Below are positions 709 to 5,126 of a DNA stretch of 5,126 bases, in pieces. The position numbers and the translations under genes were made by a program. The notes under the pieces are model-generated. The model did not search any database, was not told the DNA's origin, and was given only the letters and a program-made list of their open reading frames with translations. Each line of letters begins with the position of its first letter. Position 1 is the first letter of the stretch. This DNA is from a virus (Duplodnaviria; Heunggongvirae; Uroviricota; Caudoviricetes): positions 1 to 5,126 of the IMG/VR virus record IMGVR_UViG_2778261416_000005, one strand, 5' to 3'.

Positions 709-720
709 ACCCACAAATCT

Positions 721-783
721 ATAACTACGGTTATCCAAAGTAAAATAACAAAGGTTATTGCTATTTTTTATAACTTGAGTTAT
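721..783. promoter_or_regulatory. Tripartite operator array (OR-like) in the divergent cI/cro promoter region
   Basis: Three 14-bp sites with perfect inverted half-sites ATAAC-N4-GTTAT at 721-734, 745-758 and 770-783, centres 24 and 25 bp apart. They lie between the divergent repressor and cro-like genes. A possible PR -10 (TATAAG, 791-796) and an SD (AAGAGG, 807-812) precede the cro ATG. Confidence 0.55.
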
Positions 784-819
784 CTTTGGTTATAAGTAAT
801 GACCACAAGAGGTATGCTC

Positions 820-1051: not shown

Positions 1052-1097
1052 CGCTCTTTAACAGTCATGGTCTTCATTCCCGCCGAAATGCGGGAAT
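1052..1097 (+). promoter_or_regulatory. nutR-like site: boxA (CGCTCTTTA) plus boxB-like hairpin
   Basis: boxA-like CGCTCTTTA at 1052-1060 follows the cro stop. An 8-bp perfect stem ATTCCCGC/GCGGGAAT (1076-1083 with 1090-1097) encloses a CGAAAT loop, which is GNRA-like. Position between cro and cII matches lambdoid nutR. Confidence 0.5.
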
Positions 1098-1137: not shown

Positions 1138-1180
1138 AAGGAAATACTTACATATGGTTCGTGCAAACAAACGCAACGAG
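1137..1180 (-). promoter_or_regulatory. PRE-like CII-activated promoter (TTGC-N6-TTGC boxes inside the cII 5' end)
   Basis: On the minus strand, TTGCGTTTGTTTGC lies at 1163-1176 (codons 3-8 of cII) and AAGTAT is the -10 at 1144-1149. This matches the lambda PRE architecture as I recall it. Confidence 0.6.
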
Positions 1181-1447
1181 GCTCTACGAATCGAGAGTGC
1201 GTTGCTTAACAAAATCGCAATGCTTGGAACTGAGAAGACAGCGGAAGCTGTGGGAGTTGATAAGTCGCAGATCAGCAGGTGGAAGAGGGACTGGATTCCA
1301 AAGTTCTCAATGCTGCTTGCTGTTCTTGAATGGGGTGTCGTTGACGACGACATGGCTCGATTAGCACGACAAGTTGCTTCGATTCTCACCAATAAAAAAC
1401 GCCCGGCGGCAACCGAGCGTTCTGATCAAATACAAATGGAATTTTAA
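1154..1447 (+). CDS. cII: CII transcriptional activator, near-identical to phage lambda CII
   Basis: A 97-aa protein MVRANKRNEALRIESALLNKIAMLGTEKTAEAVGVDKSQISRWKRDWIPKFSMLLAVLEWGVVDDDMARLARQVASILTNKKRPAATERSDQIQMEF, matching lambda CII from memory with about two substitutions. The upstream sequence TAAGGAAATACTTACAT ATG is also lambda-like. The track ORF 1067..1447 is an unsupported upstream extension. Confidence 0.92.
   Translation: MVRANKRNEALRIESALLNKIAMLGTEKTAEAVGVDKSQISRWKRDWIPKFSMLLAVLEWGVVDDDMARLARQVASILTNKKRPAATERSDQIQMEF
1391..1420 (-). terminator. Intrinsic terminator of the oop-like RNA
   Basis: On the minus strand, a 7-bp stem CGCUCGG/CCGGGCG (one G-U pair) with a 6-nt loop is followed by UUUUUUAUU (plus-strand A-tract at 1391-1399). 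Confidence 0.6.
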
Positions 1448-1458
1448 CAACATCCAAC
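1391..1458 (-). ncRNA. oop: oop-like antisense RNA overlapping the cII 3' end
   Basis: The minus strand reads ...CAGAACGCTCGGTTGCCGCCGGGCGTTTTTTATT, matching the 3' half of lambda OOP RNA as recalled. A perfect TATAAT -10 on the minus strand at 1465-1470 overlaps the next gene's start codon, as pO does in lambda. The 5' end is approximate. Confidence 0.55.
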
Positions 1459-1469
1459 GAGGTAATTAT

Positions 1470-1661
1470 ATGCGAAACAAAGGCTTTAATCCACCTGATA
1501 CACACAAAGAAGCTAAGCGTTTGCGCTTCCTTCGTTCCATTGATGAAAGAACTCAAATCTCTTTTGTGAAAGTTGCCAGAACTGAGCTTCTTAAGGCTGA
1601 GGCGAGGGCGTTGCTCCCGTCTCTATCCGCACAACGCAGATGGACGGTCTGTTGGCAATGA
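1470..1661 (+). CDS. Hypothetical protein (63 aa) at the position normally occupied by replication gene O
   Basis: SD GAGG at 1459-1462 sits 7 nt before ATG 1470, just after the cII stop. No family recognised. The track ORF 1374..1661 is the same frame extended upstream into cII. May be the N-terminal part of a frameshifted gene continuing in the 1573..1914 frame. Confidence 0.45.
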
Positions 1662-1914
1662 AGCAAATGGTAATTATCGATGGTACGACTACTGCAATAA
1701 CCCCGTCGATGCATGGCCGATTATTGATGACAACGAAATAGCGTTAATCCCATCAAACGACTTTGGTTGGGTTGCTATAAGTGGTTTGATGTTAAATGGC
1801 TGTTCTTCGTACATTGATCAACGTCTTGATGGTTGTTTTCAGCATAGTGATACAAACCCACTCCGCGCCGCCATGATCGTATTTCTCATGATGCAGGACG
1901 CCAATAATGCTTAG
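1573..1914 (+). CDS. Hypothetical protein, start unresolved (open frame without an ATG until 1789; possible frameshifted gene or pseudogene)
   Basis: Long open frame with protein-like composition (…[42 protein letters not shown]…). It opens with TTG and has no SD. An ATG at 1658 overlaps the stop of the preceding ORF (ATGA) but is in a third frame that closes at 1741. By position this could be a YbcN/NinE-type nin protein, but I cannot confirm it. Confidence 0.3.
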
Positions 1915-2083
1915 CCCATCCCAATCCATTCAATACCAGAAAGAAAGCGTCGAGCGGGCTTTAACGTGCGCTAACTGCGGTCAGAAGCTGCATGTGCTGG
2001 AAGTTCACGTGTGTGAGCACTGCTGCGCAGAACTGATGAGCGATCCGAATAGCTCAATGTACGAGGAAGAAGACGATGAATGA
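1907..2083 (+). CDS. ninF: NinF-like small Cys-rich (zinc-ribbon-like) nin-region protein, 58 aa
   Basis: Manual translation gives [58 protein letters not shown], with CxxC and CxxHCC motifs and an acidic tail. SD CAGGA lies 8 nt before the ATG. The start overlaps the upstream stop (ATG 1907, TAG 1912-1914) and the stop overlaps the antirepressor start by 8 nt. Absent from the ORF track because of length. NinF assignment is from memory of the lambda nin region. Confidence 0.6.
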
Positions 2084-2798
2084 GTTAATAAATGGCAATG
2101 CCATCAAAATGACAAGCATTGAAATCGCTGAGTTGGTGGGTAAGCGTCATGACAATGTGAAACGTACCATCGAAACGCTGGCTAAAAATGGTGTTATCCG
2201 GCTTCCTCAAATTGAGGTTTCCGAAAGAATCAATAACTTAGGGTTCAATGTTCAGTACGAGCATTACGTCTTCGAAGGCGAACAAGGTAAGCGAGATAGT
2301 ATTGTTGTTGTTGCCCAGTTGTCGCCAGAGTTCACCGCTCGCCTTGTTGACCGCTGGCGAGATCTTGAAGAAGCTGCGGTTAATATCCCCAAAACGCTAC
2401 CGGAAGCGTTGCGCCTTGCTGCTGATCTTGCTGAGCAGAAAATGCAACTGGAAAACCAGCTTGCAATTGCCGCACCTAAAGTTGAGTTTGCCGATCGCGT
2501 TGGCGAGGCCAGCGGAATTTTGATTGGAAACTTTGCAAAGGTTGTCGGTATTGGTCCAAACAAACTGTTTGCGTGGATGCGCGATCACAAAATCCTTATT
2601 GCTTCAGGTTCCCGGCGCAATGTGCCAATGCAGGAATATATGGATCGCGGCTATTTCACAGTGAAAGAAACAGCGGTCAACACAAATCACGGAATACAGA
2701 TATCGTTCACCACAAAAATCACCGGGCGTGGTCAACAGTGGCTGACCAGAAAGCTGCTCGATAACGGAATGCTGAAAGTAACAGGGGAGGCTGCTTAA
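2076..2798 (+). CDS. Phage regulatory protein Rha with C-terminal KilAC/ANT antirepressor domain
   Basis: A 240-aa ORF. The N-terminus (MTSIEIAELVGKRHDNVKRTIETLAKNG … LVDRW) fits the Rha domain. The C-terminus (FADRVGEASGILIGNFAKVVGIGPNKLFAWMRDHKILI … QEYMDRGYFTVKE) fits the KilAC/ANT domain. SD GAGGA lies 8 nt before ATG 2076. Confidence 0.88.
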   Translation: MNELINGNAIKMTSIEIAELVGKRHDNVKRTIETLAKNGVIRLPQIEVSERINNLGFNVQYEHYVFEGEQGKRDSIVVVAQLSPEFTARLVDRWRDLEEAAVNIPKTLPEALRLAADLAEQKMQLENQLAIAAPKVEFADRVGEASGILIGNFAKVVGIGPNKLFAWMRDHKILIASGSRRNVPMQEYMDRGYFTVKETAVNTNHGIQISFTTKITGRGQQWLTRKLLDNGMLKVTGEAA

Positions 2799-3088
2799 TG
2801 GCTAATCTACGCAAAGAAGCACGCGGCAGAGAATGCCAGGTACGTATTTACGGCGTATGCAATGGTAATCCTGAAACTACAGTTCTGGCACATTACCGGA
2901 TGGCTGGAATTTGCGGAACGGGAATGAAGCCTGACGACCTGATCGGCGCATGGGCTTGTAGCGCGTGTCACGATGAAATCGACCGACGCACCCATAATCT
3001 CGACAACAAAGACGCCAGACTTTACCACCTCGAAGGCGTGATCAGGACGCAGGCGATACTACTGAAGGAGGGGAAGATTAAGCCATGA
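2798..3088 (+). CDS. ybcO: YbcO-like DUF1364 protein (Cys/His-rich putative nuclease of lambdoid nin regions)
   Basis: A 96-aa ORF, MANLRKEARGRECQVRIYGVCNGNPETTVLAHYR…CSACHDEIDRRTH, resembling DLP12 YbcO as recalled. SD GGGGAGG lies 7 nt upstream; TAATG overlap with the antirepressor stop. Confidence 0.85.
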   Translation: MANLRKEARGRECQVRIYGVCNGNPETTVLAHYRMAGICGTGMKPDDLIGAWACSACHDEIDRRTHNLDNKDARLYHLEGVIRTQAILLKEGKIKP

Positions 3089-3447
3089 ACGAATATCAGT
3101 TTGTGCTTCCATACCCGCCGTCGGTGAATACCTACTGGCGAAGACGGGGAAGCCAATACTACATCAGCGATAAAGGCCAGAAATACCGAAAAGACGTTCA
3201 GCAAATCATCCGCCAACTTAAGTTAGACATTTTCACCAAATCACGACTCCGCATCAAAGTAATCGCAGACGTTCCGGACTCCCGCCGCCGCGACCTCGAC
3301 AACATCCTGAAAGGTTTACTCGACTCCCTTATCCACGCCGGATTTGCGGAAGACGACGAGCAATTCGATGACATTCGCGTAATTCGTGGTGTGAAAGTAC
3401 CAGGTGGAAGGCTTGGAATAAAAATCACCGAACTGGAGAACGCATGA
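3085..3447 (+). CDS. rusA: RusA Holliday junction resolvase (crossover junction endodeoxyribonuclease)
   Basis: A 120-aa ORF with RusA hallmarks (LPYPPSVNTYW…, PDSRRRDLDNILKGLLDSL…, GGRLGIKITE). SD AAGGAGGGG upstream; ATGA overlap with the ybcO stop. Confidence 0.9.
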   Translation: MNEYQFVLPYPPSVNTYWRRRGSQYYISDKGQKYRKDVQQIIRQLKLDIFTKSRLRIKVIADVPDSRRRDLDNILKGLLDSLIHAGFAEDDEQFDDIRVIRGVKVPGGRLGIKITELENA

Positions 3448-3632
3448 ACGCCACAATTCAAACGATACCAGAGCTTCTTATCCAGACACGAGGCAATCAG
3501 ACCGAAGTGGCAAGGATGCTTTCCTGCGCAAGAGGAACAGTGCTCAAGTACAACCGAGACAGCAAAGGCGAGCGTCACGTAATAGTTAACGGCGTCCTGA
3601 TGGTCAAACAGGGCAAAAGGGGAAGGCCATGA
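3444..3632 (+). CDS. ninH: NinH-like protein
   Basis: A 62-aa ORF, TIPELLIQTRGNQTEVARMLSCARGTVLKYNRDSKGERHVIVNGVLMV, matching lambda NinH (TIPDMLVEAYGNQTEVARRLKCSRGTVRKY…). ATGA overlap with the rusA stop. Confidence 0.85.
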   Translation: MNATIQTIPELLIQTRGNQTEVARMLSCARGTVLKYNRDSKGERHVIVNGVLMVKQGKRGRP

Positions 3633-3802
3633 GACTCGAAAGCGTAGCTAAATTTCATTCGCCAAAAAGCCCGATGATGAGCGACTCACCACGGGCTACG
3701 GCTTCTGACTCTCTTTCCGGTACTGATGTGATGGCTGCTATGGGGATGGCGCAATCACAAGCCGGATTCGGAATGGCTGCATTCTGCGGTACAGGGACAT
3801 AA
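3629..3802 (+). pseudogene. Q: Truncated late antiterminator Q (lambda-type N-terminal ~53 codons only)
   Basis: Manual translation from ATG 3629 (ATGA overlap with the ninH stop) gives MRLESVAKFHSPKSPMMSDSPRATASDSLSGTDVMAAMGMAQSQAGFGMAAFCG, then TGT and stop. This matches the lambda Q N-terminus as recalled, which continues KHELSQ… after FCG. Homology ends at about 3790. Confidence 0.75.
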
Positions 3803-3882
3803 AGATACAGGCCATTACCATCGAGAAGGCGGTATGGTTTTTCTTTCGGCTTTGCTGCTTCAATCTGCTTAACGGTGAGCAT
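3790..3882 (-). pseudogene. Integrase N-terminal fragment (P4/IntS-type arm-binding region, ~31 codons) truncated at a deletion junction
   Basis: Minus-strand translation from ATG 3882 gives MLTVKQIEAAKPKEKPYRLLDGNGLYLYVPV, a typical N-terminus of tRNA-associated P4-family integrases. Beyond about 3790 the reading frame is antisense Q sequence (…PQNAAIPNPACDC…). The track ORF 3655..3918 is this chimera with a GTG-start extension. Confidence 0.65.
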
Positions 3883-4043
3883 GGGTAAAAATCCGGTGGG
3901 TAAAATTATTTTATCCACTTTTTACCCGTCATGGAGTGCGGCTGTCAACGATCTGACGCGAACCATTACGAACTGTGAATCTACGGAAGTCTTGATATTC
4001 AGGGGATTTTGCGGACTGGTACGGATGGGAGCGAACTGATAAA

Positions 4044-4118
4044 TGGTGTCCCCTGCAGGAATCGAACCTGCAATTAGCCCTTAGGAGGGGCTCGTTATAT
4101 CCATTTAACTAAGAGGAC
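4044..4118 (-). tRNA. argW: tRNA-Arg (anticodon CCU)
   Basis: The 75-nt minus-strand sequence GTCCTCTTAGTTAAATGGATATAACGAGCCCCTCCTAAGGGCTAATTGCAGGTTCGATTCCTGCAGGGGACACCA has a 7-bp acceptor stem, an anticodon loop CUCCUAA and a terminal CCA. It matches E. coli argW as recalled. Confidence 0.95.
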
Positions 4119-4193
4119 AATGCGGCATGAGTATACCCGCTAATGGAGTGCGGGGTAAGTACGCTGCCGCTCGATTGCTTAAACCCTCGCCAT

Positions 4194-5126
4194 TTATGCC
4201 GGGTTTTTATAATTTTTCTTAATGTTTTCCGCACGTTCTGCTTTTTGGCGTGCTTCTGCTTTACGCTTATTGCTCATGTCGTTACGAATCTGTGCATGAC
4301 TCATTAACGCGAAGATAAAGGTGCCGCCGCAGATGTTCCCCGCTAAAGTAGGTAGTGCGAAGGGCCAGATGAAATCGCTCCAGTGCAGCGTACCGTTAAA
4401 CACCAGATAGAGGATTTCAACAGAACCGACCACGATATGGGTGGTGTCACCCAGGGCAATAAGCCAGGTCATCAATATAATCACCACAATCTTTGCCGCA
4501 CCCGCTGCAGGAAACATCCAAACCATAGTGGCGATCAGCCAGCCGGAAATGATCGCGTTGGCAAACATCTCGCTGGGGGTGTTCTTCATCACATCCATGC
4601 CGATTTTGACAAATGCATCGCGAGTTTCTTCATTGAAGATAGGCATATATTCAAATGCCCACGCCGCAATACCTGTCCCGAGAATATTACCCAGCAGCAC
4701 GACGCCCCATAACCGTATAAGTAAGCCGACGTTGCTCATTGTCGGTTTTTGCATGACGGGTAGTACCGCAGTCACGGTATTTTCGGTAAATAATTGCTGG
4801 CGGGCCATAATGACGATAATAAAACCAAAGGTATAACCGAGATTCTCCAGCAAGAAGCTGCCCGGCACACCTTCCAGTTCGACTTGAAATATCCCTTTTG
4901 CCAGTAACGAAGCGCCCATCGACAGACCCGCCGCAATGGCTGACCACAGTAGCGCCATTGCGTCGCGTTCCAGCTCTTTTTCACCATCCTGGCGGATATG
5001 CTCATGAATTGCCATCGCCCGGGAGGGGAGTCGGTCTTCATCTATTTCTATTTTTTTGCCGCGCTCTTTTTCTTCGCTCTCAACTTCAATTTCGTCGCTG
5101 TGTTGATCAATTTTGTCGTTGTCCAT
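4194..5126 (-). CDS. yfdC: Formate/nitrite transporter (FNT) family inner-membrane protein YfdC
   Basis: A 310-aa ORF with multiple hydrophobic transmembrane segments and acidic/basic termini, consistent with E. coli YfdC, which neighbours argW. The ATG sits exactly at the window end (5124-5126); stop at 4194-4196. Confidence 0.9.
   Translation of the reverse strand: MDNDKIDQHSDEIEVESEEKERGKKIEIDEDRLPSRAMAIHEHIRQDGEKELERDAMALLWSAIAAGLSMGASLLAKGIFQVELEGVPGSFLLENLGYTFGFIIVIMARQQLFTENTVTAVLPVMQKPTMSNVGLLIRLWGVVLLGNILGTGIAAWAFEYMPIFNEETRDAFVKIGMDVMKNTPSEMFANAIISGWLIATMVWMFPAAGAAKIVVIILMTWLIALGDTTHIVVGSVEILYLVFNGTLHWSDFIWPFALPTLAGNICGGTFIFALMSHAQIRNDMSNKRKAEARQKAERAENIKKNYKNPA

Follow-up and report, generated by a model that had tools for sequence, protein, structure and literature searches.

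A probable lambdoid right operator built of ATAAC-N4-GTTAT dyads between the divergent cI and cro genes of a lambdoid prophage

Three short palindromes lie between two divergent genes of a lambdoid prophage, and the question they raise is which proteins bind them and whether their specificity belongs to an immunity system already described. The DNA analyzed was a 5126-bp piece of this prophage (hereafter, the window), whose first base is the end of the cI stop codon. A sequence-only reading had described three evenly spaced ATAAC-N4-GTTAT palindromes at 709–819 and had taken them for an OR1-OR2-OR3-like array of non-lambda specificity. A pattern scan bore out the palindromes: ATAACNNNNGTTAT had exactly three matches in the window (Table 1), and no perfect match was present in any of 200 dinucleotide-preserving shuffles (mean 0.00). 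The starts of the sites are 24 and 25 bp apart (approximately 2.3 helical turns); the same centre spacings had been given before, and they are indeed near those of lambda OR (23 and 24 bp). It was also correct that the nearest dyad begins 13 bp from the first ATG of the repressor gene, at 708 on the minus strand, which leaves 12 bases (709–720) between them; the three centres are 19.5, 43.5 and 68.5 bp from this ATG. The OR-like array thus stands, but its numbering has to be reversed, as the site called site 1 in that reading (721–734) is OR3 by the lambda convention and the one at 770–783 is OR1. A reading of the dyads as RNA hairpins was set aside, the 5-bp stems and 4-nt loops being too weak for meaning.

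Table 1. Features of the window. Promoters and operator equivalents are predicted.
Feature	Position	Strand	Remarks
cI-type repressor gene, 235 aa	1–708 (ATG 708, stop codon 3–1)	-	N-terminal HTH and C-terminal S24 self-cleaving domain
Predicted PRM	716–744	-	-35 TTTACT 744–739, 17-bp spacer, -10 TAGATT 721–716
OR3-equivalent operator, cI-proximal	721–734	.	ATAACTACGGTTAT; perfect match; in spacer and -10 of predicted PRM
OR2-equivalent operator	745–758	.	ATAACAAAGGTTAT; perfect match; flush between predicted PR and PRM -35 hexamers
Predicted PR	758–786	+	-35 TTGCTA 758–763, 17-bp spacer, -10 TATCTT 781–786; start inferred near 792–794
OR1-equivalent operator, cro-proximal	770–783	.	ATAACTTGAGTTAT; perfect match; in PR spacer, right half-site overlaps PR -10
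Extra GTTAT half-site	789–793	+	About predicted PR start point; uncertain significance
cro gene, 74 aa	820–1044	+	Recognition helix TQPAVHKW; Shine-Dalgarno-like AAGAGG at 807–812
nutR boxA, lambda-like	1052–1061		CGCTCTTTAA
nutR boxB hairpin, non-lambda	1076–1097		TTCCCGCCGAAATGCGGGAA
cII gene	1154–1447		
NinX, C-terminal fragment	1573–1914		After cII
NinF			After cII
Rha/KilAC antirepressor gene	2076–2798		After cII
YbcO			After cII
RusA			After cII
NinH			After cII
Integrase N-terminal fragment, 87 aa	3655–3918	-	Weak Arm-DNA-bind_3 match
tRNA-Arg(CCT)	4044–4118	-	Abutted by integrase fragment
Formate/nitrite-transporter family gene	4194–5126	-	

Pfam searches showed that the dyads are flanked by divergent cI (HTH and S24) and cro genes. 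The repressor matched Peptidase_S24 (1.4e-17) and HTH_3, the architecture of cI and LexA, and the best solved relative of its N-terminal domain was the 434 repressor, residues 1–69 (1per, 2r63 and 1r63, E values from 1e-7 to 7e-7, over residues 5–64). Its recognition helix reads SQPAIQKM. The Cro protein matched YdaS_toxin (1.1e-17, above the cut-off) and, below threshold, P22_Cro (25.6 bits versus a cut-off of 30.2); its sequence matches in PDB were the Cro proteins of Xfaso 1, lambda and N15, with the lambda match weak (E value 0.015). An AF2 model of this Cro (single-sequence, pLDDT 71, medium confidence) was all-alpha and superimposed best on Xfaso 1 Cro (3bd1; 1.7 A, TM 0.74–0.86, 37% identity), followed by YdaS, N15 Cro and P22 Cro. 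Because the flanking genes are cI and cro, the dyads occupy the cI-cro intergenic region, which is the place of OR in every lambdoid phage.

A mechanical ORF call had started the repressor at TTG 738, which falls inside the control region. The conserved ATG of four homologs is preceded by in-frame stop codons, 2–8 codons upstream; therefore, the gene starts at ATG 708, as had been argued before from the position of the nearest dyad, and the TTG start was rejected. We also noticed that cI in the GenBank entry of phage SH2026Stx1 (MG986485) is annotated from an internal Met (570 bp, 4001–4570 of that locus) and so is without its HTH domain; alignment with homologs supports a full 708-bp cI gene there.

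Two divergent promoters, PR and PRM, are predicted among the dyads. A relaxed scan gave weak hexamers for both (8 of 12 matches each) that overlap the dyads, and a generic promoter and terminator scan of 600–1200 returned none; the assignment is based on the relaxed scan together with positional conservation, the hexamers being below the threshold of the generic scanner. Hexamer positions are conserved among the homologs, where the PR -10 reads TATAAT (in Entomohabitans) or TATTTT and the PR -35 reads TGGACA (in Enterobacter) or TAGACA. In every homolog the PR -35 begins with the last T of OR2, and PL is arranged in this way too. The two rightward and leftward promoters are also built alike in the interval that follows: PR consists of TTGCTA, 6 bp, ATAACTTGAGTTAT and CTT, and PL of phage Stx1a_10051 (on the PL-sense strand) of TTGACC, 6 bp, ATAACCTAAGTTAT and CTT, so that at both promoters the -10 (TATCTT) starts inside the right half-site GTTAT. 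On the repressor side, a TAnATT hexamer is present 6–7 nt before the cI ATG in all homologs with ATAAC-type sites. In the window, the predicted PRM -10 ends 7 nt before ATG 708, and this distance therefore implies a leaderless cI mRNA. The PRM -10 of lambda is likewise TAGATT, and its cI transcript is leaderless. We regard these detailed promoter and leaderless-transcript assignments as likely.

The immunity region recurs in E. coli. The cI-OR-cro block is 99.7% identical to that of the Stx1a-converting phage Stx1a_10051, 94% identical to that of phage SH2026Stx1 and 78.6% identical to those of PA28 and a number of Stx1 phages. Of 5426 complete E. coli genomes, 163 (approximately 3%) carry the block, O26:H11 strains among them, and the exact proteins are found on at least 1000 contigs, under generic names only. 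Loci used for comparison are those of SH2026Stx1 (L001), Stx1a_10051 (L002), the PA28 type (L003), Entomohabitans (L004), Izhakiella (L005), Erwinia (L006), Kluyvera (L008) and Enterobacter (L009). A homolog search with one genome per species returned six cI relatives. Three of these loci, from Entomohabitans, Kluyvera and Enterobacter (75%, 47% and 41% identity, respectively), have three sites at the same positions upstream of cI with 25/24-bp spacing, and the position and both half-sites of OR3 are kept in L001, L003, L004, L008 and L009. Homologous immunity regions, even at 41% identity of the repressor, thus keep the palindromes at these positions; their loss there, which the sequence-only reading had named as refuting the array, was not observed. 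Six distinct OR sequences, a small set whose E. coli members are closely related, were aligned with the window as reference: the half-site columns were identical to the window in 148 of 150 cases (98.7%), as compared with 42 of 60 for the N4 centres and 65 of 105 for the inter-site bases (62–70%). In the PA28 type, OR2 reads ACAAC...GTTAT. A separate dyad with a wider centre, ATAAC-N7-GTTAT (7-bp centre), was observed on the cro side of OR1 in the Entomohabitans locus (3890–3915), in which a simple ORF scan found no Cro-sized ORF.

If these sites are operators, a matching OL array would be expected left of cI, and the earlier reading had proposed looking for one. OL lies outside the window and was observed in relatives only. 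Left of cI in three related phages we found a pair of sites 25 bp apart, one perfect and the other with a single mismatch; in Stx1a_10051 these are at 3428 (perfect) and 3453 (one mismatch) of locus L002 (OL at about 11150–11260 of LC744178.1), adjoining nutL with a boxB-like hairpin that mirrors the nutR boxB of the window. OL arrays are also present in L001, L003, L008 and L009. Scanning of 50 kb of each of two such phages gave a consistent picture: the perfect sites of Stx1a_10051 are three at OR and one at OL with no others, and all perfect and one-mismatch sites of PA28 are at OR or OL. Lambda-style looping between OL3 and OR3 should not be assumed, because OL has two full sites only. As a separate observation, lone half-sites accompany OL (3470–3500 in L002; also L001, L003, L008 and L009): an ATAAC 21 bp upstream of OL2, which is a full site in the Enterobacter locus only, and, another 23 bp upstream, a GTTAT(C). 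Both persist in loci that differ in the bases between, and they may be weak auxiliary operators.

The dyads can also be linked to the two phage proteins through the recognition helices of the latter. All repressors associated with ATAAC-type sites have the helix [ILV]SQPAIQKM, and all their identified Cro proteins have [ST]QPAVHKW; in the window, the helix [S/T]QPA[I/V]xK is common to cI and Cro. That both proteins have Q-P-A-x-x-K fits two competitors for the same sites. In the other three cI relatives, similarity to the window protein is mainly C-terminal, and the recognition helices differ. In the Izhakiella locus, the helices are SQAAIQK (cI) and TQQAVYK (Cro), and the dyads at OR and OL are ACAAC-N4-GTTGT (3669–3729 and 6277–6313); in the Erwinia locus, they are AQSSVNK and SQSTICD, and the dyads are ATCGC-N4-GCGAT (3894–3964 and 4785–4798). 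Both loci retain the same OR and OL architecture despite their different dyads. Because relatives with other helices carry other dyads, the motif travels with the DNA-binding head and not with the rest of the gene. The sites are non-random, conserved in position, restricted to OR and OL, and co-vary with the recognition helices.

An evolutionary code has been described for Cro proteins, in which Gln at H1 goes with A+2, Ala at H3 with A+5 (Ser or Thr with G+5) and Lys at H6 with C+6 (PMC6649833). When the window Cro helix T-Q-P-A-V-H-K was aligned to Y26-Q-S-A-I-N-K32 of lambda Cro, the code predicted nAnnAC and the observed half-site is nATAAC; it should be noted that this comparison rests on a weak alignment to lambda Cro (PDB E value 0.015, with no BLASTP match). 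The Erwinia proteins have Ser (cI) or Thr (Cro) at H3, for which the code predicts G+5, and their half-site ATCGC has G at +5. The three new specificity groups (ATAAC, ACAAC and ATCGC) fit the Cro recognition code. In addition, judging from the sequences of this repressor family, the residue that follows the conserved Gln may track position 2 of the half-site, Pro going with T and Gln or Ala with C. If true, this pairing would be a fourth one added to the published code.

Taken together, these data make it very probable that 709–819 is the OR of a lambdoid prophage and that its dyads are the binding sites of cI and Cro. By analogy with lambda and 434, repressor dimers would bind the three 14-bp dyads, and Cro dimers would bind them in the lytic state, with both proteins reading the half-site through the common [S/T]-Q-P-A-[I/V]-x-K recognition helix. 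Repressor at OR1 and OR2 would cover the spacer, -10 and -35 of PR, so that cro and the rightward early genes are off, and the dimer on OR2 would abut the PRM -35 and could activate PRM. OR3 would cover the spacer and -10 of PRM, giving negative autoregulation by the repressor and repression of cI by Cro. Translation of cI would use a leaderless PRM transcript with its predicted start at 708–709, on or beside ATG 708, and SOS-activated self-cleavage through the S24 domain would relieve repression. We infer binding, the order of site affinities, cooperativity, promoter start points and PRM activation from this analogy.

Other explanations of the dyads were considered against the same data. An AT-rich intergenic region may yield palindromes by chance, or may repeat promoter elements that have no operator role, and in the present case the region is AT-rich and GTTAT overlaps the TAT of a -10-like hexamer. 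However, none of the 200 shuffles contained a perfect site, half-sites are 98.7% conserved as against 62–70% for the neighboring bases, the same motif recurs at OL, and relatives with other helices carry other motifs; we consider a chance origin scarcely credible. It is a somewhat better, though still very improbable, proposal that the dyads belong to a different factor (a host regulator, for instance, or one linked to an antirepressor) or that only one of the two phage proteins binds them. A Rha/KilAC antirepressor gene is present in the same prophage, which would suit such a factor. On the other hand, the dyads change together with the recognition helices of cI and of Cro from one specificity group to the next, the QPA-x-x-K helix is in both phage proteins, and every perfect site in the two 50-kb phage scans is at OR or OL. 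We know of no E. coli regulator whose consensus matches ATAAC-N4-GTTAT. The reading of the dyads as common cI and Cro sites is thus retained.

A different alternative concerns the number of operators rather than their nature. The fourth GTTAT that the sequence-only reading had pointed out at 789–793 is present; read as a 14-mer, 780–793 (TTATCTTTGGTTAT) departs from the pattern at two positions and shares 4 bp with OR1. Either this 14-mer or the half-site itself might be a real repressor or Cro site over the PR start, giving an OR with four functional operators. This GTTAT occurs both in the window type and in the PA28 type (78.6% identical), and the E. coli variants L001 and L003 retain it despite divergence of the bases that follow; a four-operator OR is reported for the Stx1 phage H-19B in a review (PMC8065619, citing Shi & Friedman 2001). 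However, the element is a half-site only; GTTAT is absent at this position in the ATAAC-type homologs from Entomohabitans, Kluyvera and Enterobacter (L004, L008 and L009) and at PL, its conservation could equally reflect constraints on the start point, and the immunity type of the window is not that of H-19B. A four-operator OR therefore appears unlikely to us. The half-site lies, as far as the aligned loci indicate, outside the core of the array and is a feature kept in close relatives only, where it may make a weak auxiliary contact or reflect a constraint on the start site; its presence was rightly noted, but it is not a conserved part of the system. The preferred model remains that of three operators at OR.

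In arrangement, this is a canonical lambdoid OR. As in lambda, cI and cro are divergent with three dyads between them; spacings are 24 and 25 bp here versus 23 and 24 bp in lambda, and the site centres are 19.5, 43.5 and 68.5 bp from the cI ATG here versus 19, 42 and 66 bp in lambda. The predicted PRM -10 TAGATT is 7 nt before the ATG, implying leaderless cI as in lambda, and the three code residues Q, A and K of the window Cro are those of lambda Cro. The half-sites are also related, as TATCAC of lambda and nATAAC have A2, T3, A5 and C6 in common, whereas +4 is C in lambda and A here. In contrast, a lambda operator spans 17 bp around a central base pair and has TATCACCGC-type half-sites, and the present dyads span 14 bp (16 if the flanking position is counted), their axis falling between base pairs. 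The window cI is only 23% identical to lambda cI, and the window Cro has no BLASTP alignment to lambda Cro, which is an alpha+beta protein, as opposed to the all-alpha model obtained here. Lambda has three OL sites, the relatives of the window have two full ones, and the nutR boxB differs as well.

The 434 system is closer with regard to the repressor head and operator length. Its operators are 14 bp, ACAA-N6-TTGT, with the axis between base pairs; they begin with A and have AA at positions 3–4, and its OR has three sites. Gln17, Gln28 and Arg43 of the 434 repressor align to identical residues in the window cI. However, the 434 helix is Q-Q-S-I-E-Q and that of the window is Q-P-A-I-Q-K (Gln29 is replaced by Pro and Gln33 by Lys), position 2 is C in 434 and T here, and position 5 is a fixed C here. 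Thus, homology in the DNA-binding domain is present and the outer bases ACAA...TTGT are absent, as the sites read ATAAC...GTTAT; the system would work like that of 434 with a different specificity. The window Cro also differs in belonging to the YdaS/P22-Cro lineage, rather than being a 434-Cro-type paralog of the repressor. It resembles the all-alpha Cro proteins of Xfaso 1, N15 and P22 in its modeled fold, and it obeys the three code pairings. N15 and P22 operators have the symmetry axis between base pairs (PMC6649833), as do the dyads of the window, and the half-site sequences differ: N15 Cro has Pro at H1 with T+2 and Gln at H6, as compared with Gln at H1 and Lys at H6 here. Overall, the system appears to be of mixed character: the repressor head and the length of the operators resemble 434, the geometry and the Cro code residues resemble lambda, and Cro itself is all-alpha in its model.

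Among Stx phages, 933W offers a parallel. This lambdoid Stx2 phage has three sites at OR and just two at OL (PMC8065619), and in common with the window type, it combines this layout with an AAC...GTT core in the operator. A Lys of the 933W helix has been suggested to recognize the G in the C:G pair of position 5 (PMC3317979). The annotated 933W operators, however, are 15 bp, nG(A/T)AC-N5-GT(A/T)Cn, with five bases between AC and GT; the similarity of its cI to the window protein is a weak HTH match (E value 8e-4, 79 residues) without a C-terminal match, and the two Cro proteins are 32% identical over 50 residues. The operator sequences, published and annotated, together with the unrelated repressor, rule out identity with 933W. 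Identity with BAA2326 was likewise ruled out, as its sites are weakly symmetric and different. The H-19B and 933W repressors are reported to have a common C-terminal domain (PMC3202840). When the C-terminal domain of the window cI was used in a tblastn search, 933W was not among the best matches, and since no alignment to 933W cI extends into the C-terminal part of the window cI, the H-19B immunity type was excluded too, H-19B being judged by its description.

The earlier statement that this is a distinct immunity specificity was therefore upheld: lambda, 933W, BAA2326 and the H-19B type differ, as does 434 by what is generally known of its operators; what has to be qualified is the distance from lambda, to whose TATCAC the half-site is still related. 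The specificity is absent from the searchable literature. A full-text search with six operator strings gave no match in a phage context, only an unrelated S. aureus paper, and prior tabulation in older papers is possible; the searchable literature on H-19B, VT1-Sakai and Stx phage operators contained no description of ATAAC-N4-GTTAT, and no binding or transcription results for this repressor, its Cro or the sites were found there.

Conceptually, the switch is a textbook lambdoid one and holds no surprise for the specialist. Its interest is that a probable operator, ATAAC-N4-GTTAT, and a predicted promoter layout are now defined for an immunity group found in approximately 3% of complete E. coli genomes, which includes O26:H11 Stx1a prophages and, as a variant form, O157 Stx1 phages. 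Repressor-operator affinities control spontaneous induction of Stx phages, and a defined operator set therefore makes footprinting, reporter and immunity experiments straightforward. We suggest more tentatively, as a possible but rather doubtful proposal, that these Stx1a phages (O26 and the 79%-identical O157 variant) have a switch design that is uncharacterised, in which a 434-type head and an all-alpha Cro read ATAAC through Q-P-A-x-x-K and OL consists of two full operators and conserved lone half-sites. If this is true, long-range OL-OR repression of PRM could be weak or differently built, as in 933W, and altered OL-OR repression could affect how readily these toxin phages induce.

The remainder of the window shows a mosaic prophage. 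The product of cII is identical to lambda cII at 95 of 97 positions (98%), in agreement with the earlier description of this gene as lambda-like. Identity to lambda DNA returns only at about 1136, immediately ahead of cII, and a mosaic joint is therefore placed between nutR and cII. Within the first codons of cII (1154–1180, minus strand) we observed TTGC-N6-TTGC, which we take to be identical to the cII-binding repeat of lambda PRE; the repeat suggests that establishment transcription dependent on cII runs through cro into cI in the antisense direction. Downstream, the prophage is defective, with no replication genes after cII (1447–3800), and related prophages have approximately 2.4 kb more after cII, replication proteins included, with homology to the window ending near 3791. 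No complete E. coli genome covered at least 80% of the window, only parts of it being shared. The stretch 3655–5126 resembles the attachment region for prophages at argW/yfdC, the nin region being fused directly to the int remnant.
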